DNA of 64,000 bases from an uncultured Gammaproteobacteria bacterium. GTDB lineage: Bacteria > Patescibacteriota > Patescibacteriia > UBA10025 > JAHIVO01. The DNA lies in NCBI GenBank assembly GCA_964415025.1, contig CAYPXF010000006.1, forward strand, positions 58 through 64,057. The letters are read 5' to 3'. The position numbers were made by a program, and so were the translations under genes. The notes under the pieces are model-generated. The model did not search any database and had not been told where the DNA came from. It saw only the letters and a list, made by a program, of their open reading frames with translations. This document shows, one piece after another, positions 17 to 60,904 of this stretch (within the stretch, counting starts at the first letter, position 1; the number at the start of each line of letters is the position of its first letter).

Positions 17-3000
17 CTAAAAATTCGCCGTAGCGATAAAGGTAATACTGGTCGTATACTGGCCTGCCTCAGTCTGGCCGCTGATATTGGCAATATAGTA
101 CAGACTAATTGTCTCCGTAGCAGTAGCAGTTGATTCAGAGACTAATGTCTCCTTGCTGTCAGCAATAAAGGTATAATCTGCTGCCGCGCCGCCAGTATCA
201 TAATCATAGCCTGCGGCAATGGTCGCGTCAGTGCCGGCCGAGGCACTAATAGCAAACTGCTCGGTGCCGGGCGTGCCGTTTTCGTCATTTGTCCAGGTAG
301 CTACGTCTATGCTATCTGACCCGTTCGTGAGCGTCGATCCACTATATGTGATCGAATATCCGTTATCCGCATTGGTAGTGATTTGCAGAGTGTGAGCCGG
401 GGTCGCAGTAGCCGAACCGGTCTCATCGCCGGTGGCCCAGGTAGCGGCTGTACTGGATAAAGAGCCAAAGCCGACGCCCATGTCCGGTCCGGTATCAGCA
501 ATACTGAATGATAATGTATTGAAATTCCAGCAGTCGTTATTAGTCGCGTCGAAGTTGGTGCCGTCAGTCGCGTCTATGGTATCGCCGCCGCACGCGTTTG
601 AATCACGGACATCGGTATTTGACACAAACTGGGTGCCGCTGCTGATCAAGTTCCACTGGGTACCGGTCGATGATGACCGCAGGAAAACGCGCGTACCCTC
701 GGCCTGGCCGTCGAAATCAATATTGTTAAAGGTGTAATCACTGCCCGCGTTAAACTGCAGCTGGGTGCTGGCCGTATTGGCCGTGAAATTATTGGCAGTC
801 TGGGCGGCGGCGCCAAAAATAACATCAGGATCACTGCCGCCGGCGTTGGTAATAGTGAGATTATAAAACTGGCCGCCTGCTCCTGTTAATGTCCCCTCAA
901 AAGTTTGCTGCGCAGACCCGTCAGCCGTCACCGTACTGCTGCGTGCCGTAAACGTGTCGTTGTTAGTCCAATCCCCGCCAATGGCAATACTGTTATTCTC
1001 GCCACTCTTCGTATCGAGCGTACCGCCGGTGATTGTCAGGTCATCATTCACGTCAAACGCTGACTCCAGCTGGAACGTATCACCGTCAGCCGCGTCATTT
1101 AACACCACCGCGTAGAAATCATCCTTTGTGGCACCGGTGGAATCAATAGTCACCGTGCCGGCGCTGACTGACGACGCGTCAAAAGTAACCGTACCTGACC
1201 GCGCTTCAAACGTATCACTGTTACTCCAGTTACCGCCGACCGTGATCGCGTTGTTTTCCACTGACACAACATCGAGCGTACCGTCGGTAATAGTGAGATT
1301 ACCATTGAGGGTAATCGGATCTTCTACTTCCACGGTCAGGCTACCGCCGCCACCGTCATTGACAGTAACATTATTCAGGTCACAGGTATTGCACGTCGGG
1401 CTAATCACCAGATTAGACGTTCCGGTCGTGTCATTAAAAGTAATGGTAGACGTATCCGGATAATATCTGGCACCAGAGCTCACCGTAAAATCACCGCCCA
1501 GCTCAATAAACGTTGCATCGCCCTCTCCGTCATCAGTGGCATCCATAACACCATCGATAAGTATATCTGTCTCGATCGCCACATCATAGCCATTAGTATT
1601 GAAAATATCACTGCTTCCTACACGCAGGCTCTTGGCTTTCAGGTCCGAGGACAAATCAGTCGTATCCGGCGATGCGCCGATCCACAGCGTGCCCATATCC
1701 TGGAGCGTAGCCGTACTGTCAGTAAAGGTGAGATCACCGTCAAACACGACTTTACCCGTGCCAGATGCTTTGGTAAAAGTCGTGCCAGAAGCAAGAGTAA
1801 AATTACCAGCCACGTTCAGGTCGCTGTCCGCCGCCTGGGTAAAGGCGGCCGTGTCAGCCAGGTCAAAGGTGCCGTCCACGTCCATAGCGCCCACCTGGCT
1901 GATAGTGCCGGTGCTGGAGGCCTTATAATTATAAATAGTCTGGCCGCCCGGCGTGATAGACTTGGAGGCGCCGTCCATATGGAAAGTATGATCGGTGGTT
2001 GCCGTTACAGTACAATTTGTCAGATCGACATCACCGGTCACCTGGTAGGTGCCGGTGCCGGTATTAATATTATTGGTGCCTGTACCAGCACAGGAAACCG
2101 AACCGCCTATATCCAGTGACGGGTTATTTTCCGTACCGGATAATGTCGCCGCATTGGTGCCGTCACCAATTATGAGATTATTATTTATATCCAAATCTCC
2201 CGACACTGGCAGCGTATGCGTGGCCGTCCCGCTGGGCTTAATTTCCAAATTATAATAACTGCCGTCTAATACCACGCCATCTATGCTGTCAATGTTAGTT
2301 GCGCCAGCTCCAGTATACCTGAACGTCGAGGTGCCACCCGTAATACGGCCATTTGTAGTAATAGGTGTACCTGTCCCGGTGATAATCCATGTCTTCGGTC
2401 CGGCATTTAATGTATGCTCTTTATCTCCCAGATTAAAACATGACGCCACGGCTAGTGTACCATTTACGGTCACGCTCCCTGTGCCCGTAGCGGTCGTCGT
2501 ATAAGCACCACAAACCGGCAAATAAAATTCTAGATTATTAAATGTCCAGTTGCTCGCACCGCCCATATTGCCGGTACCCGCGATGCGGAACGTAGCGCCA
2601 GTCCAATCCACCACCCCGTCGCCGGTGAGATCGCCGCCCTTGACCGTAAAGTTGTTTGACCCGGACAAGGTTGAGCCCGACCCGACAGTCACGTCATTAT
2701 TCACGGTAACGGCACTGGCAACGGTAATAGTACCCGCACCAGATGTTTGGAAATCATATAACGGATCACCTGACGTAGTCAGGGTAGCGGCATCATCTAT
2801 GTGTAATACATTGCCGGTCGCCGCCGTATAATCTCCGCCCGTAAAATCAACATCATCAGTCACTGTCCAGGTGCCCGTGCCAGACGTAATAGTTGGACTG
2901 CCGTCACCTACACCGGAAAAGCTAAGCGATCCAGTAATATTCATGGTCGGATTATTCGTGGCGCCGTCAATAGTCAGGCTGTTACCGTTTTCAACTACGC

Positions 3001-6000
3001 CGGTTAAATTATAGGCAATCGTATGCTCACCCGCACCCAGCTCAATCGTGCGGTCTGTTGTTCCTGAATTGGTGTACAGTTCCACACTGCCGCCGTATGA
3101 TCGCGCCGGCATGGTGCTCGTATTGCCATTGGTCGCGTCAAAACGGATTTGCGTGTTAATCACGCCGCCCGTTGGTATGACGGTCGCGGAATCTATAACC
3201 AAATACCCCGAATCCCGGATCGCATTAACGATCGAGCCATTGAGCGTAAATGAACTGCCGGTCCAGATTACATTAACACTGTCGATTGACAAGATGTCGC
3301 CGGTATCCACATAGAGCTGATTATCAATAGTTATATTATCCGTCTCCACTGCCACGGTCGCGGCGCCGCCGTTTGAATCCACGACCAGGTTATTAAACGT
3401 GGCGCCGTTTGATTGGAGCGTACCCGAGTCCGTCCATATCAAATCAGCCGTATCCGCAGAAACCGTTGTCTGGATAGTGAGGTCACCTGTCAAAAAATAA
3501 TTACCAGCATTAAAGGTATAGGTCGGCGTGCCGCTGGCCGGCTGGAGATACAGATTATTATATGATTTTGTCTGCTCAATAGTCGTGGCTGATGTGCCGG
3601 TGTACTTAAATGTAGACGTCTGGCCATCCAGGCTGCCGTTACCTGCGCCTCCGTCAGCCTGATCATGAAATACCGTGCCTGATCCGCTCAATATCCAGTC
3701 TTTGCCCCCGGCAGCAAGCTGGTGACTGTACCAATATTCACTGACCATCGAATAATTAGCCTGTATTGTCAGCTGATTGGTGATAGTGATACTACCGCTG
3801 CCTGTGGCGCTAGTAGTGTAATCAGTAGTACCACTGTGCTGGAATATTAAATCATAAAATGCCCAGGCACTATCACCGCCAAAATTATTGCTCCCATTAA
3901 CGATATTAAACGAACCCCCACTCATATTGATAGTGCCGTTACCGGTCACATCATCATCGACTTGGATATTCGAATCGCCAATAATAGTACCGTTAGTTAC
4001 GGTTAAATTGCCGTCGATTCCACAGCCGTTTTCAAATTCCCATTCACCGCCCACACCGTCAAAAGTCATATTATTATGCGTTGAAGCAAAATAAAGCGTT
4101 TCCCCTGTCGAGGTTGAAGTAAACTTTGTTGTATTACTTCCTGGTATATATGCGTCAATCGTATCAGCTCTCCAAGATCCACCTATGGTGACATCGTGAT
4201 CGGTCGCGTTAAATGTCGCGTCATTATCAATATGAATGTCCCCGCCCTGTTGCGTAGTTACTGTTCCTCCAGGGGCATAGGTATCACTATTCCATACGTG
4301 CAGGCCAACATTTACGTCGATAGTAAGGTTATTGGTGGATACCGCATACTTCACGTCGTCGTCACTGTCATCACCAGTAGCCAGATTGGCGTTGGTTATC
4401 GATCCAGTATCCGCGCGAACAATAACCCAGTCCTGATATACATCCACATTACTCTGGTCAGTACCGTCTGAAACGTATACTGTCGTGCCTTCTTCTGTTT
4501 CATTTTCCAGGTATACGGTGATTACATCTCCTGATGCTATCGTCAGTCCGGTGATGCTCCAGCCTCCGTCTGCGGCTGAACATTCAGTCGTATCAGCACC
4601 GGCGCCGTCAATGCGGAGATTGACTGTCTTCGCACCGGCTGAACAGTCGATAGCGGTCGTGCCTTCGTCACTGTATAATGTCCCTGAAATAGTGGCTCCA
4701 CAACTTCCCCCGGCAGAAATACTCCAGTCTGTATTATTACCCCCGTCATTCGAATACGTCGCGCAAAAGGCCACGCCGGTATTAGTCGAGTATGATACGT
4801 CAACATATGACACGTCAGCCGCCGTGGGATTGACGGTCCAGGCGCTGGTGGTCGAGGACTGCAGTGTCACCAGCTGGCCGCTGGCGCCCGTTACCGTCCA
4901 GGTACCGGAAATGGTCTGTGTCGTACCGGCCGTAAACGTCATGGTCTTGACCGCGCCAATACCCGAGACCGTAAAATCATTAAACGTCGTACTTCCGCTG
5001 ATCGTGGCGGTTGCCGTAGTCGTAAACTGGACCGTGCCGCTGTTATGCGTAAAGGTATTGCTGTTTGACCAGCTGCCCTGCACGTACAGGATACCGTTGG
5101 TACTGGTCAATGAGCCGCTACCGCCGATAGATAGGTCATGGACAGTCACATTACCGCTGTCAATCGTCACACTGCCTGACGCAGTGAAGTCATACAGCAT
5201 CTTGCCGCTGGCGTACAGTGTTTTGCTTGCCCCGTCCATGACAATACTATTGCCGCTGGTCGCGTTAAAGGTATCGCAATTTGATAAATCCATGTTGCCA
5301 CTCATAGTCCAGACGTCAGTACCAGTAGTTACCGTATTCGTGCCAGCTCCGGTTGTACAGCTGAACGTGCCATCTACATCCACGGTAGAGTCATACGTGT
5401 CTGCTTCAAACGTGACCGTATTCGTGCCGTCGCCGACTACCATATTACTTGTCGCGGCGATAAAAGTGCCATAGACTGTGTAGGTCGGCGACCCGCCGGT
5501 CGGCTTAAACTCTACATTATTATATGTCTGCGGCTCAATATTGGTCGCGCTAGTGCCCATATATCGCACGGTGGATGTCTGCGCTATAAATGAGTCCTGG
5601 CTCACGCCATCCTCATCTACCAGCGGCCGGCCTGATCCGCTCAATATCCAGTCCTTACTGCCAGCATTGAGATTATGGGAGCGGTAGTCATCACCGGTAC
5701 CATAATATGTCGATTCCAGCGTCATCACATTAGTGACAGTAATACTGCCCGAACCGGTAGCTGTTGTGTCAACCTCTACTGTACCAGAATGCCCAAACGT
5801 TAGATTATAAAATGTCCAGCCAGTGTCCCCACCAAAATTATTACTGCCATTGCTTACCTGGAACGTGCCGCCGGTCAGATTAATCGTGCCGTCACCGGTA
5901 ACATGGTCATCCACGTATATATCAGCCGTGCCGGACAGCGTGCCCGCGGTCATGGTCAGATCGCCGTATATATTACCAGTCGTGGTAAACGACCAGCCGC

Positions 6001-9000
6001 CGCCTGACCCGTTGAATACTACATCGTCAAAGTATGTACCGCCGAGATCTATGCCAAAGCCAGTGCCTGTCGCGGTAAACGTGGTCGTGTGCGGTATGCT
6101 GCGTCCAAATGTACCGCTATTGTCAAAATCACCACCCACTGACAAGGCGTTACTAGAAATATTCAAATTTGCTCCAGTAGCGATGACGACATCACCGGAT
6201 GATCCGCTGGCCGTACTGCTCGGTGAGGTGGTCACTGTTCCGCCCGGCTGGAATACGCTGCTGGCCCATATGTACAGTCCGCTGCCGCTCGATACTGTCA
6301 GATTACCGGACGTCACCGTAAATATAACATCACTGTCATTACCACTGTCATAATTATCCAGCTCGGTATTGCTTAATGCATCAAACGCGCTCTCGGTCCG
6401 GGTGATCAGGTTGTTTTGGTACAGGTCAAAATCACTAATATCATCATACGGATTTTGTATCTCCGTAACCGTGGTGGCATTAGGCGTCTCATTATCCAGG
6501 AATACCGTCATAATATCGCCTTCGGCAGACAGGTCGACACTGCTGACTGTAAACGAACCGTCTGCTGCCGTACAGGTACCGGTATTGGTGCCTGCGCCGT
6601 TTACCTTAATACTGACCGTCAGATTGTTTGCAGAACAGTCATACTGGGTCGAGCCAGTATCACTGTAAATCGTACCGGATATATTGACCGGACCAAAGTC
6701 CCAGCAGTTGTTATTCCCCGAATTTACGTTCGAAGAATCAGTTACGTCTATGGTTGTGCCGCCGCACGCGTTCGAATCCTGGACATCAATATTAACGATA
6801 GATTGTCCGTGTAAGTTTCCGTAAGTAAAATCATACTGCGTCCCTGGATTATCAGAACGGAACGTCACGCCACTGGCAGACTGGCCATTGATAGAAATAC
6901 CATAGGCACTGTATTCAGACGCATCATTGAAACGTATATAAACCCCCTGTGTGGTAATAGTTAATGTGCCCTGAATTTCCACATCACCACCTGTGAAAAT
7001 AACCCCGGGGTCAGTGTCAGGATCAGTGCCAGACGTATTGGTAATGGTCATGTGATACAAGCCATTGGGTGATAGCAGTCCGGCACCAGTGTTAATTGTC
7101 TGGGGTGATGAGCCGCCAAGGTACACGTGCCCGAGGTTATTAACAATTGACCCACCGTTATAAGCAAAGTTACCATTAATATTAAGAGCAGCAGTATTTG
7201 ATGCGGCGAATGAAGTATAGGGATTGATAGTGAGCGTCCCAGTGACAGTAAACGTCGGGTCATTTGTATTGAGGTTAAATTCTGTATCGCCCGACCCGCC
7301 GTCCTGCGTCAGTGTCAAATCACGATCCACCTCTATCGTACCGCTGGCCGCGGTGACTGTATTCGACGTCGCGTTACCGTAAATCTCCACATGCTGGTAA
7401 TCAGTCCGCTCGGACATGGTGACATTATTACTCGTACTATCAAAACGGATAGTAATCGGCGGGTTTGATGCGATAGAGCCTGTGGTAGGAAAAGCAGTCG
7501 TGGACTTATAGACAAGGGTGCCTTCACCGTCTATATATCCAGAAAAAGTAAAGATAGCGGATGAATCTACGGTCAGTGTCCGACCCGACTCAATGCTCAA
7601 AACATTACCTGTCGCAACATTAAGCGTACCGCTAACTATGGGGTCGTCTGTACCAGCACTGTCCACGTCGACATCCCCCAAAAAATCGGCTGGGTCGATC
7701 GTCAAGTTATTAAATGTGGTATCGTTCGTTCCGCTGATTGATCCGCCGGCCAGGGTAATAGTGCTCGTCCCGGCGGTGAAAGCACCGTTATTTATCCAGC
7801 CGTTATCTACTTTCATATTTTTATCATTCGTAGAAAACGTCACGCCCGAATCAATAGTAAAGCTGTTAGCAATAGGGATAGTCTGCGTGGTGCTGGTATG
7901 GATAGCCGCGTCTTCAATTATTTTAAGATTGTAAAAACTGTGGGATTCTGATTCAACATCATAAAATAAACGCTGGGTATGGGTCGTACCCTGGCAAATG
8001 GCGCCGCCTGTTACCGTGGAAGTAGTAAAGGTGCCGCCATTATAAATCAAAATATTAGACGCGGTAATATTACAGCCATTGGCATCAGGATTAGTACCGG
8101 AAATCATATTAAACGTTAGACTGCCTGACCGCTGCATTTCCCAGGAGCCGTTGGTGCCGCCGCCGTATGCTCCGGTATGATGACTGCCGCCATAGAGGTT
8201 AATCGTGGCGCCATTGTTCCATTGGAAGTAGCGCCCAGCATCTATACTGCCGTCATTTAGATTCACAGTGGTACTGGCACCATCAACCAGAAAATCAGCT
8301 GACGAACCTTCCAGATCTATATCCGCGCCGCTATTAATATCCAGCGTACCGCCGTCCATGTCAAAATCATCGGCCACATCAACCACCGAAGAAATTTCCA
8401 GCGTACCGCCGTCCATATCTATATTGTCATTGATATCGACGGTGTTAGAAATAGTGACATCGCCAGCATCAATATCCAATAAATCCTGAATAACGGTAGT
8501 CCCCCCGCTTAAGTTAACCGTAGCGCCGCTGTTTACCCGCAGATCCTCATCCGTGCTATTGCCGATAGTAAATGTTGCCGCCGTATGATTTAGCGTGCCG
8601 GTCACATCTACGGCTATACCGGCTCCATTGACATTCGTCGTCTGCTGCACATTGAGGATAGCGCTGGTATCGATCGTGATTTCAGCGGCAATCGTATTCG
8701 TGGCCGTATCCAGATACAGTGTTGCGCCGTCGTCCACGTGTACATCGCCGCCCGTGCCCTGGGTCGTGACCGTGCCGCCCGGATCATACGTATCACCGGT
8801 CCACACATGCAGCTCAAATCCAGAATCAAACGTAACATTGCCCGACGAGACATCGAATTTAATATCATCGTCCCCGGCGTCGCGGTCGCCGGATTCTAGA
8901 TTAGTATTAGTGATAGATGCGCCCGTGTCATTCCGTACTATCACCGCGTTCTGAAATACGTCGATATTTGTTTGATTAGTACCGTCAGTCTTAAATACCG

Positions 9001-12000
9001 TGGTACCTTCATACGTGCCGTGGTCGTCCAAATATACCGTAATAATATCGCCGCTGGATGCGGATACGCCGGTCACTGACCAATCGCCATTGGTATCAGT
9101 GGTATCAGAACCAGCGCTAACTCCATTCACGTCAACCTGCACGGTCACGCCGGAGCCTACATTCGTAGACTCGTCCTCCTGGTAGGCAGTGCCGGACAAC
9201 GTAATACCAGAGCTCACACAGCCGTCGCACTGGGCGATAACGAAATCTACATAGGGCGGCGTATGGTCGGCAGAATTATACTCAGCAGTAATCGTGTGCG
9301 TATGCGTACCGCTGGCGTAGTTTGAGCCACCGCTGGCGCTCACGGTCGCGCTCGGCGTACCGCTAGGGCCACTAGTCGTACCGCTGTGGCTATGGGTGTT
9401 TGCGCCTGTCTGCGTACCTTCAGTAGTGGCATGCCCCCTGATAAAGCGTTGGTAATAATCCTCTGCCGCGCCGTCAGATATGACGTTCCAGCCAGTACCC
9501 GGATCACCGTCAAAAAGCCCAATAAAATTACTAGGTATGGTTTGGGCCGTAGTATTAGTCTGCTCATAAATAAGACTGGTCACATAGGCGGGAATAGACG
9601 TAGCTCCTGCAACGCGAGAAGGATCTGGCGCGCTGTGTGTATGCGAATCACTTGCCGCAAAATCACCAAGCAATGGGTCTAATTCCTGAATAGTACCACT
9701 CACTGCACCCAGAGAATTCCAGGTCACAACATGTTCATGCGTATCGCTACCGCCAGTCGTATGTGAATTGTCAAGCCTTACCAGCCGGCTATCAGCGCTG
9801 CTGAAGCGGGTCCAAGAGCCGCCAGGGTCTGCATCAAAAAATCCGAATGAATTATCTGGTATAGTAGTGGGTACACCGGTATCGTTTTTCCATATATAAA
9901 AGGTGTGATGCGCTGGATTATTATCAGCATTGTCTACTGACGGATCCACCGTAAGATGAGTATGAGTAGAAGTGGCGACCCATGAACAACGACGGGAACA
10001 GGTCGTGCCATAGGTAGACGACGGCCCACTCACACTGGTGTGATGGATAGTATGACTATGGGTGGCATTGCCGCCACCAGTCACGCTAAATGAAGCTGCT
10101 CCACGCAGAAAATCGCTGTCAAACGTGGCCGTATCATCGGTCCAGCCTGTTGGCGCCGAGGCTGTGTTAGCCAATACATACATATACACCACGTCAATAG
10201 CCATTTGCCACTGCCGTCCCTCGTCCCAGTCACCCACACGCGCCGGACCCACGAGATATAACGCCGGGCTGACTTCTGGTGTTTTGAAATTATAGTTGAG
10301 CTCGATTGTCTGGCCAGCAGAAATAATACGATTCCACACGATTTCTTTAACCGTTTTGTTACCTCGTGGCACTTCCCGAATAGTAGCGTCATCCAGAATT
10401 TCTATGTCATACACGCCAGGTACAACTTCCACTATTTCTCCCTCATAATCATCCTGTGCATATACTTCTAATTTCATCGGCTGGTAAATATACGGGAAAA
10501 CACGGGTCGGCCCGTCTCGGCGTATAGTATAGGCTGGATCATCTTCTGCCCAAAATAAATCGTCCAGCACGCGCGTGCCGTTGGCATGTGTGGCTTCAAT
10601 ACGCACGTCATACTGCCCTACCGTGTTGGCTGAATAATTACCATAATAATCAGGTCCCCGATAATCCCCTTTAAAACGGCAGTATTCACTGACACTGATG
10701 CTGCCGTTCGTAGTCGTTAACATGGTGACCCGGCCTGACGGGCTGGTTATGGTCATGTTTACTTCTGCGTCGCAGACCATGTCACCGGCATCGTCAAGAA
10801 CGCCGATAGAAAGCAGGCTGTCCTGGCCGGTTTGATAAATAGACTGATCTGGGTTAAAAGCCAGCACACCCCAGGTGAACTCCTCAACCACTTGCTCGAC
10901 AACGCCATCCTGCTCAATGGTCAGTGCTACCCGGTATTTACCCGGTTTATCAAATACCGACGTATCGACAGTATATTCAGCCTTTGTCACGTCGCCGACA
11001 CGGACATCCTTCTTCTCGAGCGGTGCATCAATTGTTTCGCCATCCGGCGATATAATTTCAACTTTTTTAATATCGCGCGTAGTCGGATCAGCGCCAAGAA
11101 AGTCAAAAAATGCTTCTTCCTCTACAGCTACATCAATCACCGGATCTTCATCCGCAGCCAAATCTGTATCCGCGATAGTTACACTCTCCTGGATCGCCTG
11201 GCTGGCCGGATGCGGCTCCTGCAGTCCTGCTTCAATCACCACCGCATCGAGATACGCCGTAGCTGATTGATCACCGGTCGCCGCATCATAGCGCACACCG
11301 AAACGCAAGCGTGATAAATCAGCCGCGGATTCTAGATATGGCATGAGCGAAAATTTCCAATACCCTTCATTCGTGCTGTTATTCATCGCTTCATACAGCG
11401 GCTGGGTTCCTAATACTTCCCAGGTTTGCCCATCATCTACGGAGAGTAAAAAAGTGATTACGTCTTCATTACCAGCATACGTATCCGCGGCCAATGATAT
11501 GAGTACGCTGGCATGCTGCAGCAGTACATCAGCCGGGACCGTATCGGGCAAACGGTAATCGCCTGCTTCAAACAGTGCTTCCACTGGTGTGGCAATTAGC
11601 TCGTCGCTAACTGACACCTCATCGCCCAGCACCTGGGGATTTGATTCCGTAGCCGGTAACGGCTGGCTGCTGGTGTTTTTCATAACCGTTTCAGGTGGTG
11701 CTGTTGTGCCCTGTTCTGCCGAGGCTTGGTTTAGTGGCGCTGTTTGTACCGGCCGATTAGCATATACCGCGGAGTTTTTATCAGTAAACGCGCCGAGGCC
11801 GGCAGTAGAGGGCAAATCCAAATACCGCGCATTGTCTGGATACTGCCAGCCGCTGACTGTGGCCGGCTCGAGTGTGATACTGTACTCTTTTTGCTCTGGA
11901 GCGCCTGCCTGGATAGTATAGACATAACTAAAAAATATTGCCTGGACCGCAACAAAAGCAAAGGCTACTATTCCGGCGGAATACACAAATACTGAAAACT

Positions 12001-12373
12001 TCTTACTAACAAGACGAAGTTTTATTTTAGATACGGACAGCTTCGAATCCAGTACGTATTTGCCATTCTCGTATGGTTCTGGATCAGCTGGCGTTGGTGG
12101 CGGAGGTGTAACGCCATGCTCCTGCTCATATAGCTCCCGTACTACTCCGCATTCATAGCGGCGATCCTGCCGAGAACCAATGCGAACTGCGGTAAGCTTA
12201 CCAGTCCTGTCCCAATTACGAATCGTATTTGGATGAACACCAAAAATCTCACTCACTTGTTTGATAGTGAGGAGTTTAGGCAGTGAACCAAAATCGATAC
12301 GATGGCTGCTATTGGTGGTTTTTTTACCCCCTGAATTTGGTATGGTTTTTTGTGTGTTCTTGCCTCCGGGCAC
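17..12373 (-). CDS. giant 4118-aa membrane-anchored surface protein: N-terminal excisionase/MerR-type HTH, Pro-rich linker, single TM helix, then ~3900 aa of Thr/Gly/Asn/Asp-rich beta-helix/Ig-like repeat modules and a C-terminal beta-sandwich
   Basis: One open frame from 12373 to TAG at 17-19. HTH-like LLTIKQVSEIFGVHPNTIRNWDRTGKLTAVRIGSRQDRRYE, then TPPPPTPADPEP, then TM FSVFVYSAGIVAFAFVAVQAIFFSYVY. Three copies of a ~170-aa module (GDIITVYLDD..EGTTV..GGTVTTQ). The only in-frame start before the TM is GTG at 12373 (next ATG ~residue 231); no clear SD. Plus-strand ORFs overlapping it are low-complexity antisense artefacts. Confidence 0.8.
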   Translation of the reverse strand: MPGGKNTQKTIPNSGGKKTTNSSHRIDFGSLPKLLTIKQVSEIFGVHPNTIRNWDRTGKLTAVRIGSRQDRRYECGVVRELYEQEHGVTPPPPTPADPEPYENGKYVLDSKLSVSKIKLRLVSKKFSVFVYSAGIVAFAFVAVQAIFFSYVYTIQAGAPEQKEYSITLEPATVSGWQYPDNARYLDLPSTAGLGAFTDKNSAVYANRPVQTAPLNQASAEQGTTAPPETVMKNTSSQPLPATESNPQVLGDEVSVSDELIATPVEALFEAGDYRLPDTVPADVLLQHASVLISLAADTYAGNEDVITFLLSVDDGQTWEVLGTQPLYEAMNNSTNEGYWKFSLMPYLESAADLSRLRFGVRYDAATGDQSATAYLDAVVIEAGLQEPHPASQAIQESVTIADTDLAADEDPVIDVAVEEEAFFDFLGADPTTRDIKKVEIISPDGETIDAPLEKKDVRVGDVTKAEYTVDTSVFDKPGKYRVALTIEQDGVVEQVVEEFTWGVLAFNPDQSIYQTGQDSLLSIGVLDDAGDMVCDAEVNMTITSPSGRVTMLTTTNGSISVSEYCRFKGDYRGPDYYGNYSANTVGQYDVRIEATHANGTRVLDDLFWAEDDPAYTIRRDGPTRVFPYIYQPMKLEVYAQDDYEGEIVEVVPGVYDIEILDDATIREVPRGNKTVKEIVWNRIISAGQTIELNYNFKTPEVSPALYLVGPARVGDWDEGRQWQMAIDVVYMYVLANTASAPTGWTDDTATFDSDFLRGAASFSVTGGGNATHSHTIHHTSVSGPSSTYGTTCSRRCSWVATSTHTHLTVDPSVDNADNNPAHHTFYIWKNDTGVPTTIPDNSFGFFDADPGGSWTRFSSADSRLVRLDNSHTTGGSDTHEHVVTWNSLGAVSGTIQELDPLLGDFAASDSHTHSAPDPSRVAGATSIPAYVTSLIYEQTNTTAQTIPSNFIGLFDGDPGTGWNVISDGAAEDYYQRFIRGHATTEGTQTGANTHSHSGTTSGPSGTPSATVSASGGSNYASGTHTHTITAEYNSADHTPPYVDFVIAQCDGCVSSGITLSGTAYQEDESTNVGSGVTVQVDVNGVSAGSDTTDTNGDWSVTGVSASSGDIITVYLDDHGTYEGTTVFKTDGTNQTNIDVFQNAVIVRNDTGASITNTNLESGDRDAGDDDIKFDVSSGNVTFDSGFELHVWTGDTYDPGGTVTTQGTGGDVHVDDGATLYLDTATNTIAAEITIDTSAILNVQQTTNVNGAGIAVDVTGTLNHTAATFTIGNSTDEDLRVNSGATVNLSGGTTVIQDLLDIDAGDVTISNTVDINDNIDMDGGTLEISSVVDVADDFDMDGGTLDINSGADIDLEGSSADFLVDGASTTVNLNDGSIDAGRYFQWNNGATINLYGGSHHTGAYGGGTNGSWEMQRSGSLTFNMISGTNPDANGCNITASNILIYNGGTFTTSTVTGGAICQGTTHTQRLFYDVESESHSFYNLKIIEDAAIHTSTTQTIPIANSFTIDSGVTFSTNDKNMKVDNGWINNGAFTAGTSTITLAGGSISGTNDTTFNNLTIDPADFLGDVDVDSAGTDDPIVSGTLNVATGNVLSIESGRTLTVDSSAIFTFSGYIDGEGTLVYKSTTAFPTTGSIASNPPITIRFDSTSNNVTMSERTDYQHVEIYGNATSNTVTAASGTIEVDRDLTLTQDGGSGDTEFNLNTNDPTFTVTGTLTINPYTSFAASNTAALNINGNFAYNGGSIVNNLGHVYLGGSSPQTINTGAGLLSPNGLYHMTITNTSGTDPDTDPGVIFTGGDVEIQGTLTITTQGVYIRFNDASEYSAYGISINGQSASGVTFRSDNPGTQYDFTYGNLHGQSIVNIDVQDSNACGGTTIDVTDSSNVNSGNNNCWDFGPVNISGTIYSDTGSTQYDCSANNLTVSIKVNGAGTNTGTCTAADGSFTVSSVDLSAEGDIMTVFLDNETPNATTVTEIQNPYDDISDFDLYQNNLITRTESAFDALSNTELDNYDSGNDSDVIFTVTSGNLTVSSGSGLYIWASSVFQPGGTVTTSPSSTASGSSGDVVIATGANLNISSNALSVGGDFDNSGTFGRSIPHTTTFTATGTGFGIDLGGTYFDDVVFNGSGGGWSFTTTGNIYGDLTMTAGTLSGTADIYVDDHVTGDGTINLTGGTFQVSNGSNNFGGDTGWTFYNLTFGHSGTVEVDTTATGSGSITVTNVMTLESTYYGTGDDYRSHNLNAGSKDWILSGSGRPLVDEDGVSQDSFIAQTSTVRYMGTSATNIEPQTYNNVEFKPTGGSPTYTVYGTFIAATSNMVVGDGTNTVTFEADTYDSTVDVDGTFSCTTGAGTNTVTTGTDVWTMSGNMDLSNCDTFNATSGNSIVMDGASKTLYASGKMLYDFTASGSVTIDSGNVTVHDLSIGGSGSLTSTNGILYVQGSWSNSNTFTHNSGTVQFTTTATATISGSTTFNDFTVSGIGAVKTMTFTAGTTQTISGTWTVTGASGQLVTLQSSTTSAWTVNPTAADVSYVDVSYSTNTGVAFCATYSNDGGNNTDWSISAGGSCGATISGTLYSDEGTTAIDCSAGAKTVNLRIDGAGADTTECSAADGGWSITGLTIASGDVITVYLENETEEGTTVYVSDGTDQSNVDVYQDWVIVRADTGSITNANLATGDDSDDDVKYAVSTNNLTIDVNVGLHVWNSDTYAPGGTVTTQQGGDIHIDNDATFNATDHDVTIGGSWRADTIDAYIPGSNTTKFTSTSTGETLYFASTHNNMTFDGVGGEWEFENGCGIDGNLTVTNGTIIGDSNIQVDDDVTGNGTINMSGGSFNIVNGSNNFGGDSAWAFYDLIFQHSGTTDYTTSATGSGSITITNQLTIQANYSMVSEYWYSHQLAAGGKDWILSGSGTVFHDQADGGAGNGSLDGQTSTFKYTGTSATTIEQTKSYNNLYLQPASGTPTYTFNAGNYFLTGDLTIQTTVSADTADLIWTDSGTLQSNGATFNNLVVDSNGGAATVAVETDNITIDNQLYVDTGDILSIDSVNVIWTGSSFTLNGSIVNAIRDSGYLVIDSATVIPTGGVINTQIRFDATNGNTSTMPARSYGGSVELYTNSGTTDRTIELGAGEHTIAYNLTGVVENGNSLTIDGATNNPTMNITGSLSFSGVGDGSPTITSGTGTWTVTDDVDFTGGDYTAATGNVLHIDDAATLTTSGDPLYDFQTSGAGTITVASAVTVNNDVTVGSGSTLSGSNNFTVKGGDLTGDGVVDWTGATFRIAGTGNMGGASNWTFNNLEFYLPVCGAYTTTATGTGSVTVNGTLAVASCFNLGDKEHTLNAGPKTWIITGTGTPITTNGRITGGTSTFRYTGAGATNIDSIDGVVLDGSYYNLEIKPSGTATHTLPVSGDLDINNNLIIGDGTNAATLSGTENNPSLDIGGSVSCAGTGTNNINTGTGTYQVTGDVDLTNCTVTATTDHTFHMDGASKSITPGGQTIYNYKASSTGTISQVGAMDVDGTFDLADTAAFTQAADSDLNVAGNFTLASGTTFTKASGTGKVVFDGDLTFTDSTATLQDMGTLWIGASPDTTDLSSDLKAKSLRVGSSDIFNTNGYDVAIETDILIDGVMDATDDGEGDATFIELGGDFTVSSGARYYPDTSTITFNDTTGTSNLVISPTCNTCDLNNVTVNDGGGGSLTVEVEDPITLNGNLTITDGTLDVVSVENNAITVGGNWSNSDTFEARSGTVTFDASSVSAGTVTIDSTGATKDDFYAVVLNDAADGDTFQLESAFDVNDDLTITGGTLDTKSGENNSIAIGGDWTNNDTFTARSSTVTADGSAQQTFEGTLTGAGGQFYNLTITNAGGSDPDVIFGAAAQTANNFTANTASTQLQFNAGSDYTFNNIDFDGQAEGTRVFLRSSSTGTQWNLISSGTQFVSNTDVRDSNACGGDTIDATDGTNFDATNNDCWNFNTLSFSIADTGPDMGVGFGSLSSTAATWATGDETGSATATPAHTLQITTNADNGYSITYSGSTLTNGSDSIDVATWTNDENGTPGTEQFAISASAGTDATIAAGYDYDTGGAAADYTFIADSKETLVSESTATATETISLYYIANISGQTEAGQYTTSITFIATANF

Positions 12374-31872: not shown

Positions 31873-32655
31873 TTAAATAATTACTGGAGACTGTGTTTCC
31901 TGCTCTAGTATTTCCCGGGCCAGCCGTTGGTATGCTTTAGCGCCGGGTGAGCGCTTATCATAATGCAAAATACTCTTCCCAAAACTGGGCGCCTCGGCCA
32001 GCTTAACGTTCCGCGGAATCACTGTCCGGTAAATTGTGTCTGGAAAATACTGGTACAGCTCGTTAAAAACTTCCTTGGTCAGCTTATTGCGGTCGTCATA
32101 CATAGTCATGACGGCGCCGGCGATTTTCAGATCTGGTTTGAGATGTTTTTGTACCAGCTTAATCGTTTCCATGAGCTGGCTTAACCCCTCCAGCGCATAA
32201 TACTCTGTCTGCACCGGTATGATAACTTCTTCTCCGGCGGCCAGACCATTAATCGTCAGCAAACATAGTGACGGCGGACAATCAACAATAATATAATCAT
32301 ACTCATTGCGCACTTCGAGCAGGGCGTTATGGAGCCGAAATTCCCTCATTTCCATGTCTACTAATTCAACGCGAGCACCGGCCAGATCAGGATTTGCCGG
32401 CGCTACCCGCAACCCGTCTACCCGCGTAGGTGTGATGACCTCCTTGATTGATTGGCCGCCGACTAAGGGATGGTACACCCCCTGGGGTATATTCTTATAA
32501 TTAATACCTAAACCAGACGAAGCATTGCCCTGCGGATCTAGATCAACCAGCAGCACAAATTTACCAGCCTGTGCCAGAAATGCGGCAACATTAACAGCAG
32601 TCGTGGTCTTTCCTACTCCTCCTTTTTGGTTTACAAGCGATAAAATACGTGTCAT
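31873..32655 (-). CDS. parA: chromosome partitioning ATPase ParA (Soj)
   Basis: Deviant Walker A KGGVGKTTTAVNVAA. ParA family, 260 aa. Confidence 0.9.
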   Translation of the reverse strand: MTRILSLVNQKGGVGKTTTAVNVAAFLAQAGKFVLLVDLDPQGNASSGLGINYKNIPQGVYHPLVGGQSIKEVITPTRVDGLRVAPANPDLAGARVELVDMEMREFRLHNALLEVRNEYDYIIVDCPPSLCLLTINGLAAGEEVIIPVQTEYYALEGLSQLMETIKLVQKHLKPDLKIAGAVMTMYDDRNKLTKEVFNELYQYFPDTIYRTVIPRNVKLAEAPSFGKSILHYDKRSPGAKAYQRLAREILEQETQSPVII

Positions 32656-32699: not shown

Positions 32700-32901
32700 T
32701 AAATATGCAGTGCCCGCTTATATAGATGACCAATTACAGAATCGAATGATACAGAAATCGGGGGCATATTTGTGCTCGTTCATGCCGAGATGGAATTTTC
32801 ACGGTTTGCCCCAGGTAGACCTTGCCCTGGGCAGCTTTGAATGCTCCCAGGGTCGCATTCATCGATACCCCCCCGCCCAAGAAGGCGGGTCTTTTCTGTC
32901 C
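32700..32901 (+). ncRNA. candidate small structured RNA: three hairpins ending in an intrinsic terminator (CCCGCC caagaa GGCGGG + UCUUUUCU) with no plus-strand gene upstream
   Basis: Seen directly: hairpins at ~32809-32831 and 32839-32860, terminator at ~32872-32901. The overlapping 124-aa plus ORF (32710..33084) is not protein-like and overlaps a tRNA. Confidence 0.35.
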
Positions 32902-33021
32902 GTTCAAATCCTACAAAGCGCAAAACGCCCTCTCTTTTCAGTTAGGGTTACGCCACTGCAATTTATGGTATGCATAGTAGATTCTAACCCACGTCCTCGG
33001 GCTTGCCTGCCCGCCGGGCCA

Positions 33022-33095
33022 TACCTGGGGCCGGACTCGAACCGGCGACCTAAGGCTTATGAGTCCTTCGCTCTAACCAACTGAGCTACCCAGGC
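33022..33095 (-). tRNA. tRNA with CAU anticodon (elongator Met or lysidine-modified Ile2), no encoded CCA
   Basis: Folded by eye. Acceptor GCCTGGG/CCCAGGT, D-arm GCTCAGTTGGTTAGAGC, anticodon loop CTCATAA, T-arm GCCGGTTCGAGTCCGGC. The 31:39 position is mismatched. Confidence 0.8.
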
Positions 33096-33100
33096 TCGGC

Positions 33101-33149
33101 CTGGCAGGCGGATTAGTCCCGCGCTCTAACCGATTGAGCTACTCTGTCC
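33101..33149 (-). pseudogene. truncated tRNA-like fragment (5' acceptor strand + D-arm + non-canonical anticodon-like arm; no T-arm or 3' acceptor)
   Basis: GGACAGAGTAGCTCAATCGGTTAGAGCGCGGGACTAATCCGCC.. abuts the 5' end of the CAU tRNA 5 nt later. Its flanks (CCTGCC / GGCAGG) are complementary across the CAU tRNA. Confidence 0.5.
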
Positions 33150-33204
33150 TGTTTCCAAAAATGACGGATAAGGCATGAACCGTTATACTGGGCTTATTGT
33201 TTTT

Positions 33205-33279
33205 TGGTTGCCGGGGTGGGATTCGAACCCACGACCTCGGGATTATGAGCCCCGCGAGCTGCCACTGCTCTACCCGGCG
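33205..33279 (-). tRNA. initiator tRNA-fMet (CAU), CCA encoded
   Basis: Near-identical in layout to E. coli tRNA-fMet: C1:A72 mismatch, G-C-rich anticodon stem CGGGG-CTCATAA-TCCCG, T-arm GTGGGTTCGAATCCCAC, 3' ACCA. Confidence 0.9.
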
Positions 33280-33388
33280 ATATAGTTTATAAGTATTCTT
33301 TGGTATTATAGTTGACTTACGAAGATAATGCAAATACTTATGCCGCAGACGGGAGTTGCCGTGACCGCTGCCCTCGCGGCAGCTACGG

Positions 33389-33446
33389 TGGCCGAGAAAT
33401 TCACGCGATCTTGCGATCACGGAATTTTGAGTCCCGCGTGCCCGGC
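33389..33446 (-). pseudogene. degenerate partial copy of tRNA-Leu(CAA): acceptor stem + anticodon arm retained, D-arm and T-arm deleted
   Basis: GCCGGGC-ACGC-GGGACTCAAAATTCCG..GATCGCAAGATC..TTTCTCGGCCA aligns to the adjacent intact tRNA-Leu (GCCGAGA..ACGCACAGGACTCAAAATCCTG..CTCTCGGCA) with internal deletions. Confidence 0.5.
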
Positions 33447-33477
33447 ATGTATTATGCGACCCGCCTGCCAGTGCCTC

Positions 33478-33561
33478 TGCCGAGAGGGAGAGTCGAACTC
33501 CCATGAGGTTGCCCCCGCAGGATTTTGAGTCCTGTGCGTCTACCAATTCCGCCATCTCGGC
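33478..33561 (-). tRNA. tRNA-Leu (CAA), type II with long variable arm
   Basis: Acceptor GCCGAGA/TCTCGGC, D-arm GGCGGAATTGGTAGACGC, anticodon loop CTCAAAA, long variable arm, T-arm GGGAGTTCGACTCTCCC. Confidence 0.85.
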
Positions 33562-33691
33562 ACAGGCAGAGGCGGGCAGGTCTGACAATTACGCTACTCC
33601 GGCTTGTGAAGCATATTGTAGTAAAATAATAAATATTTGTCAATTATCAACTAGTATTGATTTAAATAGCATTAATGAATACAATATAAAC

Positions 33692-60623: not shown

Positions 60624-60904
60624 AAATAGTAAATAACAATTTTACAATTTATCAAACTCCAATAACCAATATTCTAAAAAGTTTGTAATCTTCCCCATTT
60701 TAGCAGGTGGGATCCGGGGAGCTTCTAGAAGGTGGGATTTGCTACTAGAAAAGTGAGATACTAACAATATATTTATTTGGTATTTCCTTTTAATCCCGCC
60801 TGCTTTGCCAGTTCGGCGGGCCACGTACTACGTGGCGGGCAGGCAGAAAGCGCTAAAGCATGTCCCGTGTGAAGTCAAAGGATTCTGAATAACAGCCGAG
60901 TATA

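Follow-up and report, generated by a model that had tools for sequence, protein, structure and literature searches.

Of the three tRNA genes that lie upstream of parAB in a Patescibacteria genome, two sit inside the split remains of older tRNA genes of the same kind. The window, i.e. the whole stretch of DNA that we analysed, comprises 64,000 nucleotides (nt) of one contig (CAYPXF010000006.1, assembly GCA_964415025.1) from this candidate phyla radiation (CPR) lineage. As assessed concordantly by ARAGORN and Rfam (RF00005), three tRNA genes are encoded on the minus strand, Leu(CAA), fMet and CAU, with canonical bacterial scores of 59-68 bits against a gathering score of 29. In the reading that we favor, at a probability of about 65%, resident tRNA genes have each been replaced by a cassette that carries a tRNA of the same anticodon, lacks an encoded CCA and is bounded by GC-rich imperfect inverted repeats. 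This reading starts from what could be read directly, i.e. the nested anatomy, the homology of the outer halves, the inverted repeats, the architecture shared with relatives and the existence of relatives without nesting. The feature extends from 32966 to 33643 and is wider than the interval 33022-33561 in which a first-pass annotation, made from the sequence alone, had placed the three tRNA genes together with two truncated copies. That annotation identified the intact genes correctly, and tRNA gene turnover, one of the causes it proposed, agrees with our results. The copies are not truncated but split, the halves that had been missed being 32966-33004 (CAU) and 33581-33603 (Leu), and the Leu gene is bracketed by inverted repeats as well. 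Below, the loci compared with the window are labelled L081-L236; gene order and the three tRNA identities are conserved in relatives.

In the CAU nest, two fragments, A and C, are the two halves of one decayed tRNA-CAU gene, split after nt 36 in the anticodon loop by a 107-nt insert. Read in the direction of the genes, the nest consists of the following.

33112-33149, minus strand: 5′ half of the tRNA-CAU pseudogene (fragment A), nt 1-36, from an 81% repeat, alignment and a shuffle test.
33096-33111, minus strand: left inverted-repeat arm of the CAU cassette, CCGCCTGCCAGGCCGA, from an inverted-repeat scan and folding.
33022-33095, minus strand: inner tRNA-CAU gene, 74 nt, without an encoded CCA, found by ARAGORN and Rfam (68.3 bits).
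33005-33021, minus strand: right inverted-repeat arm of the CAU cassette, TGGCCCGGCGGGCAGGC, from the inverted repeat and folding.
32966-33004, minus strand: 3′ half of the tRNA-CAU pseudogene (fragment C), nt 37 to the end with CCA, AAGCCCGAGGACGTGGGTTAGAATCTACTATGCATACCA, from a repeat and a BLAST match over 32980-33004.

The insert is thus made up, in this order, of CCGCCTGCCAGGCCGA, the intact tRNA and TGGCCCGGCGGGCAGGC. As the first-pass annotation had noticed, fragment A resembles the neighboring gene: the sequence 33106-33142 shares 81% identity with the 5′ half of the adjoining tRNA-CAU. Local alignment of this fragment with a relative's tRNA-CAU gives a score of 45, whereas shuffled sequences score 11.6 ± 2.1 and none of 2000 reaches 45. 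The complementary flanks described across fragment A were recovered too, both by the inverted-repeat search and by folding. Fragment C scores 40, against 11.3 ± 1.9 for its shuffles (0/2000). When A and C are joined, they match the orthologous tRNA-CAU of two relatives (L083 and L085) at 62 of 76 positions (82%), end to end and with the terminal CCA included, whereas they match the inner tRNA-CAU at only 52 of 77, an inner/outer divergence of ∼32%. The joined outer gene is decayed, with an anticodon changed from CAT to AAT and a broken T-stem and acceptor stem, and ARAGORN found no tRNA in it after removal of the insert, even with introns allowed and relaxed thresholds. The inner gene, which encodes either elongator tRNA-Met or tRNA-Ile2, is identical at 70 of 74 positions to the inner tRNA-CAU of L095.

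In the Leu nest, a 121-nt insert containing an intact tRNA-Leu interrupts an old tRNA-Leu(CAA) gene after nt 23, the 3′ end of the D-loop. The components of the nest, in the same direction, are listed below.

33615-33643, minus strand: promoter-like site P1, TTGACA-17-TACAAT, 11 nt upstream of the 5′ end of the old Leu gene, matching 11 of 12 positions in a consensus scan.
33581-33603, minus strand: 5′ part of the tRNA-Leu pseudogene, nt 1-23 (acceptor strand and D-arm), GCCGGAGTAGCGTAATTGTCAGA, which aligns with Leu tRNAs.
33562-33580, minus strand: left inverted-repeat arm of the Leu cassette, CCTGCCCGCCTCTGCCTGT, from the inverted repeat, the inverted-repeat scan and minimum free energy (MFE) folding.
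33478-33561, minus strand: inner tRNA-Leu(CAA) gene, 84 nt, without an encoded CCA, found by ARAGORN and Rfam (59 bits).
33460-33477, minus strand: right inverted-repeat arm of the Leu cassette, GAGGCACTGGCAGGCGGG, from the scan and folding, which matches GAGGCAGGCGGG in L091 and AAGGCAATGGCAGGCAG in L231.
33387-33459, minus strand: 3′ remains of the tRNA-Leu pseudogene (fragment B), with a decayed anticodon arm (CTCAAAA loop), a variable-arm hairpin and a deleted T-arm.

The 5′ part of the old Leu gene lies where P1 predicts the start of a tRNA and is the positional homologue of the outer 5′ parts in L091 and L231. In L231 and L085, TTGACAAA...TACAAT likewise stands at an equal distance from the 5′ end of tRNA-Leu. 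Against Leu tRNAs of the L083 and L235 types, this part scores 17-21 (shuffles, 10.8 ± 2), while its scores against those of L085 or L088 are non-significant. Fragment B, described in the first-pass annotation as a partial Leu copy, held up as such, although less firmly than fragment A, since 2-13 of 2000 shuffles (13 ± 2.1) reach its score of 21-26. It ends with TGAATT-TCTCGGCCACC, the tail of a still older layer. Because this tail, CGTGAATT-TCTCGGCCACC, matches the junction TGTGAATT...TCTCCCGGCACCA of L091, fragment B looks like a more decayed homologue of the layers in L091. The inner tRNA-Leu genes of the window and L091 are identical at 83 of 84 positions, as read from an alignment.

The fragments of both nests appear non-functional, as had been proposed. 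ARAGORN called no tRNA among them with introns allowed and relaxed thresholds, and Rfam matched none of them to tRNA at E ≤ 10; hence, they do not fold as full canonical tRNAs interrupted by an intron. We also considered whether the outer genes might be intron-containing tRNAs. This was rejected, as no group I intron or other Rfam family was found at E ≤ 10, the insert is itself a tRNA and the exons are decayed.

The two inserts share one design, an intact tRNA without CCA between GC-rich imperfect inverted repeats of one motif family (CCTGCCCGCC/GGCAGGCGG), the CAU flanks being the reverse complement of the Leu flanks. The arm motif CCTGCCYGCC occurs three times in the window, against 0.19 expected. 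There are three arm pairs in these 64 kb, one of which has no cargo.

60795-60846, minus strand: third arm pair, without a tRNA, CTGCCTGCCCGCC and CTGGCAAAGCAGGCGGG separated by 22 nt, in the intergenic space between cobW-like and UDG genes.

In MFE folds, the nests form nested cloverleaves in which the arms pair into a stem below the inner acceptor stem. Terminal inverted repeats, by which miniature inverted-repeat transposable elements (MITEs) and terminal inverted repeat transposons are recognized, are therefore present; they are imperfect in the window and perfect elsewhere, over 14 bp in L091, 9 bp (Leu) and 14 bp (CAU) in L092 and 16 bp in L125. No transposase was found among the window's Pfam-scanned open reading frames (ORFs), i.e. 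non-overlapping ORFs of at least 150 amino acids (aa), a 4118-aa ORF lying outside the scan. None of eight distinct nested genes encodes CCA, versus 39 of 67 other tRNAs. Cargo and interrupted gene share their anticodon wherever the outer anticodon loop survives, i.e. in both nests of the window, in L091, in the Leu nest of L092 and in L125; in L095 and L231, the identity of the outer gene was assigned from other segments.

The nested architecture recurs in relatives whose ParB is 47-64% identical to that of the window, with up to three nested Leu genes. Their gene order is dsbA-dsbA-lgt-ydjM-(tRNA block)-parA-parB-TPR. The clearest nest is that of L091/L227 (ParB 63-64%), in which perfect arms (GCGCCCGCCTGCCT/AGGCAGGCGGGCGC) enclose an intact Leu gene, all within an older Leu gene that is well preserved. 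It reads, in order, GCCGAAGTGGCG, CCCGCCTGCCttt, the intact Leu gene, gaGGCAGGCGGG and CGCGTGCGACTCAAAATCGCA...CCTTCGGCA. The outer Leu gene of L091 is complete except for the D-loop, its D-stem running directly into the perfect 14-bp arm stem, and it folds as a cloverleaf around the insert. Both genes are enclosed by the two ends of a third, outermost Leu gene of a different sequence type, so that the three layers represent three Leu types. L231 has a Leu nest like that of L091/L227. L092 has a Leu and a CAU gene that are each flanked by inverted repeats, with outer remnants, and the CAU nest of L095 (ParB 58%) is collinear with that of the window, outer halves included. In L125 (ParB 47%), an intact Leu gene follows nt 23, in the D-loop, of a recognizable outer Leu gene, between perfect 16-bp repeats (CCCCGCACCAATTTAT) unrelated to the others, and the outer gene is contiguous across the insert except for four extra nt. 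The outer Leu gene resumes at the 3′ strand of the D-stem (CGCG...) in L091, L092 and L125, and the insert follows nt 23 in both the window and L125; the independent events behind this shared site are few in number. Because L085, L234 and L235 have clean, un-nested clusters, nesting is polymorphic and does not represent a conserved functional unit, the finding by which the first-pass annotation would have been refuted.

How replacement might proceed can be outlined from these features. A compact cassette would insert into the cognate resident tRNA gene, and the outer gene, now redundant, would decay into fragments. An insertion that kills an essential tRNA gene would be survived because the insert carries a working copy. 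The cassettes are too small to accommodate promoters, and transcription of the inner genes would therefore start at the old ones, P1 serving the whole Leu nest and P2, a second promoter-like site upstream of tRNA-fMet, reading through fMet into the CAU nest. In the transcript, the paired arms would extend the inner acceptor stem and prevent wrong pairing between the inner tRNA and the homologous outer halves; insulated by this stem, the inner tRNA could be excised by RNase P and RNase Z, and CCA could then be added. Endonucleolytic 3′ processing by RNase Z is inhibited by CCA, as established for Bacillus subtilis, and the missing CCA of the nested genes fits this route because of that inhibition. 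The cassettes might arrive by site-specific insertion, or by homing-like gene conversion with the conserved tRNA halves as homology arms. The use of the same Leu site with unrelated repeats and the anticodon always shared by cargo and target point to one or the other.

Several observations weigh against replacement by cassettes. At the junctions that were read, no target-site duplication is visible. The scanned ORFs of the window contain no integrase, transposase, reverse transcriptase or nuclease, and a six-frame search of the window with the GIY-YIG proteins of L088 and L091 found no homologue. The outer Leu gene is badly decayed: its 23-nt 5′ part is by itself marginally significant, and fragment B seems to be a mixture of two older layers. 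No pair of close strains with an empty and a filled site was found and, because the nearest relative has only 64% ParB identity, insertion was inferred from anatomy. A single ancient event, or two, may account for the nests of the window, L091, L231 and L095, in which case few events are independent (L125 for certain, L092 possibly). Recognizable outer halves persist between genomes this divergent, which could mean that they are kept by selection and are not junk.

If selection maintains them, the outer halves and the repeat stem might belong to a functional composite precursor and serve as a processing scaffold, as a source of small RNAs resembling tRNA halves or as decoys. Indeed, the outer CAU remnants can be aligned between the window and L095 while the neighboring intergenic DNA cannot, and the outer Leu gene of L091 is intact but for its D-loop and folds as a cloverleaf around the insert. 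We nevertheless regard such a function as unlikely, in view of the lineage-specific deletions (the T-arm of fragment B in the window, the D-loop in L091), the hairpin insertions and the mutated anticodon, the absence of the outer genes from L234 and L235, and their rejection by ARAGORN and Rfam. Partial tandem duplications, or slippage of replication at hairpins, followed by decay would need no incoming DNA at all. The order 5′ half-5′ half-3′ half-3′ half could formally result from two partial duplications, L083 has tandem repeats containing tRNA 3′ ends, and L088 and L232 carry exact 33-nt duplicates of the 5′ part of their own tRNA-Leu. Yet a local origin is hard to reconcile with an outer CAU gene that matches the orthologues of other genomes (62/76) better than its own inner gene (52/77). 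The motif bounding the cassettes recurs elsewhere in the window, the insertion site is shared with L125, where the repeat is unrelated, and the three layers of L091 are of three different Leu types, all of which makes duplication a rather improbable source.

Transfer RNA genes are classical integration sites, and the first-pass annotation had seen the copies as scars of integrase-mediated insertion or excision, i.e. duplications of the attL/attR type left by islands or prophages that were later excised or decayed. There are patterns of this sort among the relatives, such as a 1.27-kb insert between an intact Leu gene and a 55-nt copy of its 3′ half in L094 and, in L083, L095, L135 and L234, a ∼140-nt element bounded by repeats of the 3′ end of the preceding tRNA. 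In the window, however, direct repeats of a single segment are not seen; the pieces are complementary halves that surround an intact gene in the right order. The inserts, of only 107-121 nt, consist of a tRNA and inverted repeats, Pfam found no integrase in the scanned ORFs, and with a difference of ∼32% neither the outer nor the inner gene is a regenerated copy of the other. Attachment-site scars are thus largely refuted for the window and have become a very improbable explanation. Still less credible is an artefact of metagenome assembly, by which co-occurring strains would have been joined chimerically through common tRNA k-mers. An independent Logan assembly of the same organism (SRR7048225_9914, L081) does start inside tRNA-fMet, at window position 33261, a break typical of assembly graphs at repeats and probably caused by the repeated tRNA sequence, and the Leu nest is covered by one assembly only. 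Nevertheless, over 11,389 nt from that position the contig is identical to the window, with the CAU nest included, which is therefore the same in two assemblies; homologous nests come from independent samples and assemblies (L091, L227, L231, L092, L095 and L125), and mis-joins do not yield perfect inverted repeats that abut tRNA ends.

Replacement by cassettes, if right, would provide a minimal route for selfish or incoming DNA into an essential single-copy RNA gene. Neither a self-splicing intron nor a regenerated 3′ end would be needed, as the insert brings a complete replacement gene, and this would be a third solution beside introns and att-site regeneration. In reduced genomes with one gene per tRNA, the nests would also record successive tRNA gene replacements in a legible stratigraphy, and they suggest that these CPR symbionts, which are naturally competent, frequently exchange tRNA genes horizontally. 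Together, arms that extend the acceptor stem and a CCA that is consistently unencoded would predict a dedicated, RNase Z-dependent maturation route. More tentatively, Patescibacteria might harbor tiny non-autonomous tRNA-in-tRNA cassettes that insert site-specifically in a loop of the cognate gene, rescue the cell from their own insertion, rely on the resident promoter and stack up to three deep, driven either by an enzyme acting on the palindromic arms or by small GIY-YIG nucleases like those encoded in the corresponding tRNA blocks of relatives. For annotation, nests produce spurious overlapping tRNA calls, such as a 76-nt "tRNA-Leu" reported by ARAGORN in L091, and they break assemblies at tRNAs.

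The nests occupy a 1-kb intergenic stretch that separates a divergent ydjM-like gene from parA (31873-32655, followed by parB). The ydjM-like product had no match in an exact look-up. Three further features lie among or between the nests.

33342-33386, minus strand: GC-rich hairpin with a GCTGCC-GCGAG-GGCAGC core, between the Leu nest and the fMet promoter, from folds and direct reading.
33305-33334, minus strand: promoter-like site P2, TTTGCA-18-TATAAT, matching 10 of 12 positions in a consensus scan, which would serve tRNA-fMet and the CAU nest.
33205-33279, minus strand: initiator tRNA-fMet, non-nested and with an encoded CCA, found by ARAGORN and Rfam.

The hairpin may mark where a transcript ends, or it may be one more palindromic element. 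The fMet gene bears the marks of an initiator, a C1:A72 mismatch and three G-C pairs (GGG/CCC) in the anticodon stem. Weak Rfam matches over the tRNAs (YrlA, Plastid-ycf2 and similar) were far under the gathering scores and were dismissed as reflecting tRNA-like shape only. In the window, the tRNA block is inverted, the tRNAs being co-directional with parA; in nearly all relatives and many other Patescibacteria loci, tRNA-Leu(CAA) is divergent from parA (compared for L083, L085, L091, L231, L234 and L235). Other inversions occur in L095 (Leu only) and in L088, L092, L112-115, L129 and L229 (fMet and/or CAU). A scan of a genome collection with ParA retrieved relatives of at most 62% identity from many phyla and showed a widespread occurrence of divergent tRNA-Leu(CAA) genes upstream of parA. 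ParB homologues with a source name are Patescibacteria or Kerfeldbacteria, the nearest non-self ParB being 63-64% identical. A cyanobacterial origin, prompted by GATCGC motifs, was rejected on the basis of these names and because HIP1 (GCGATCGC) occurs once, against 1.4 expected. The scanned ORFs are ordinary housekeeping genes; the single 4118-aa ORF (17-12373, minus strand) fills the first 12 kb of the window.

Two other origins for the cassettes or their arms were considered and rejected. A phage origin was dropped, as exact 25-28-mers of the inner tRNAs were unmatched in IMG/VR; arm-gap-arm patterns matched 56 viral contigs, but those sampled were GC-rich and had no tRNA between the arms, so we consider these chance matches. 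A GC-rich palindrome acting as the parS site of this clade cannot explain arms split by a tRNA, and no intact palindrome is present in the window. Canonical parS (TGTTTCACGTGAAACA) is absent from the 64-kb window (≤3 mismatches) and from the L082-L133 and L227-L233 loci, ∼5 kb around parB (≤2 mismatches); more distant loci (L134-L169) and ParA loci from outside the CPR often have it. A parS of diverged sequence may serve this clade. A 20-nt perfect palindrome, CCTGCCTGCCGGCAGGCAGG, is found at 4065-4084 in L088, 4066-4085 in L232/L233 and 6566-6585 in L122, identical in distantly related Patescibacteria, with variants at 8119 in L130 and 4673 in L150. It lies in a tRNA-Leu pseudogene, at loop position 32/33, in L088 and L232, and in an AT-rich intergenic spacer in L122. 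Its half-sites resemble the cassette arms of the window.

Partial tRNA copies of other kinds are common in the tRNA block of relatives. L088 and L232 have the exact 33-nt duplicate of the 5′ part of tRNA-Leu mentioned above, with an identical 18-nt palindrome at 32/33, followed by a small GIY-YIG gene and then the intact Leu gene. Such ORFs, of 66-102 aa, are found at 3802-4110 in L088, 3803-4042 in L232, ∼3088-3286 in L091, 3508-3777 and 1140-1424 in L096 and 3510-3809 in L116, and all lie inside tRNA blocks except for the 1140-1424 match in L096. In L088, L096 and L232, the ORF stands between the duplicated 5′ part of the tRNA and the intact gene; that of L091 has direct hairpin repeats of ∼35 nt on either side. 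In L094 (2721-4126), the 3′-half copy of tRNA-Leu(CAA) next to the insert begins in the anticodon loop. The arrangement is that of an att-like islet lacking an integrase, and the HxH start of the 308-aa ORF in the insert suggests a PHP-type phosphoesterase. Decayed tRNA-Leu copies also carry hairpin insertions that start with CCCCG/TCCCG and end with CGGGG/CGGGA, at D-loop, anticodon-loop or T-loop positions (L236 1-275; L092 380-420; L091 3720-3790 and 3990-4050; L125 2480-2530; L113 1395-1440), which suggests that small palindromic inserts of a second class are either tolerated by tRNA loop sequences or directed to them.

Downstream of the CAU nest, the window contains a conserved non-coding element of ∼140-190 nt (32783-32925, minus strand), which has no Rfam match. 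It is also present in L083 (3027-3385, two near-identical tandem copies), L095 (3570-3712), L135/L136 (3653-3805) and L234 (∼3440-3780, two differing units). The preceding tRNA is CAU in the window and L083, fMet in L095 and L234, and Leu in L135. In relatives, the element ends with a repeat of the last ∼17-20 nt of that tRNA, and the 3′ end of the window copy matches neither CAU gene. It begins with GGATTCGAAC and keeps a core hairpin, GACGAATGCGACC...GAGCATTCGGCG, with four compensatory pairs. It may encode a small RNA or be a miniature integrative element.

The nests share traits with several known systems. Islands and prophages that target tRNA genes duplicate only a 3′ segment of the tRNA, as direct repeats, are kilobases long and encode an integrase. 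Like them, the cassettes are inserted inside a tRNA gene, keep a working tRNA and leave a displaced partial copy, and att-like 3′-end repeats are found in the same block of relatives. Unlike them, the window has a complete tRNA of ∼75-85 nt on a 107-121-nt insert, the old gene persists as two halves, and an integrase was not found in the scanned ORFs. Short dispersed units of GC-rich inverted repeats, such as repetitive extragenic palindromic (REP) sequences and bacterial interspersed mosaic elements (BIMEs), Rickettsia palindromic elements and MITEs, are tolerated in non-essential DNA and sometimes in RNA genes. The resemblance lies in the arm motif, which recurs without cargo at 60795-60846, and in the related 20-nt palindrome of L088, L232 and L122. 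To our knowledge, however, palindromic elements have not been reported with a central tRNA gene or inside a cognate tRNA gene, and neither the target-site duplication nor the transposase of MITEs was found in the window. The E. coli tyrT locus contains 178-bp repeats that each end with the 3′ terminus of tRNA-Tyr. Similarly, an intact tRNA is followed by partial tRNA 3′ ends in L083, with tandem units of ∼180 nt, and in L234, with its two differing units. A tyrT-like pattern accounts for the downstream ∼140-nt element but not for the nested halves and inverted repeats of the window.

Two further systems come closer to an exchange or interruption of tRNA genes. Phage T4 SegB is a free-standing GIY-YIG homing endonuclease encoded in a tRNA cluster, where gene conversion replaces the tRNA region of the recipient (PMC2330249). 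The small GIY-YIG ORFs in the tRNA blocks of L088, L232, L091, L096 and L116 recall this arrangement. In contrast, the window has no GIY-YIG homologue, the cassettes are too small to code, the 66-102-aa CPR proteins, which are putative nucleases, have no obvious DNA-binding domain, and homing by SegB leaves no nested genes. Disrupted tRNA genes of archaea and red algae may be intron-containing, split or permuted (PMC3978253, PMC3728597). As in the window, the break falls at loop positions (D-loop or anticodon loop) and the flanks are paired at the junction. There, however, the interrupted gene is functional and undergoes bulge-helix-bulge splicing, whereas in the window the interrupted gene appears dead and the interrupter an intact tRNA, as judged from their sequences. 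We know of no such splicing endonuclease in bacteria. Full-text searches turned up no account of tRNA genes nested in one another, or of cassettes carrying them, in bacteria of the CPR or elsewhere, although this absence is no proof of novelty. None of the systems compared above joins a complete tRNA cargo, inverted-repeat arms and insertion within the cognate gene.

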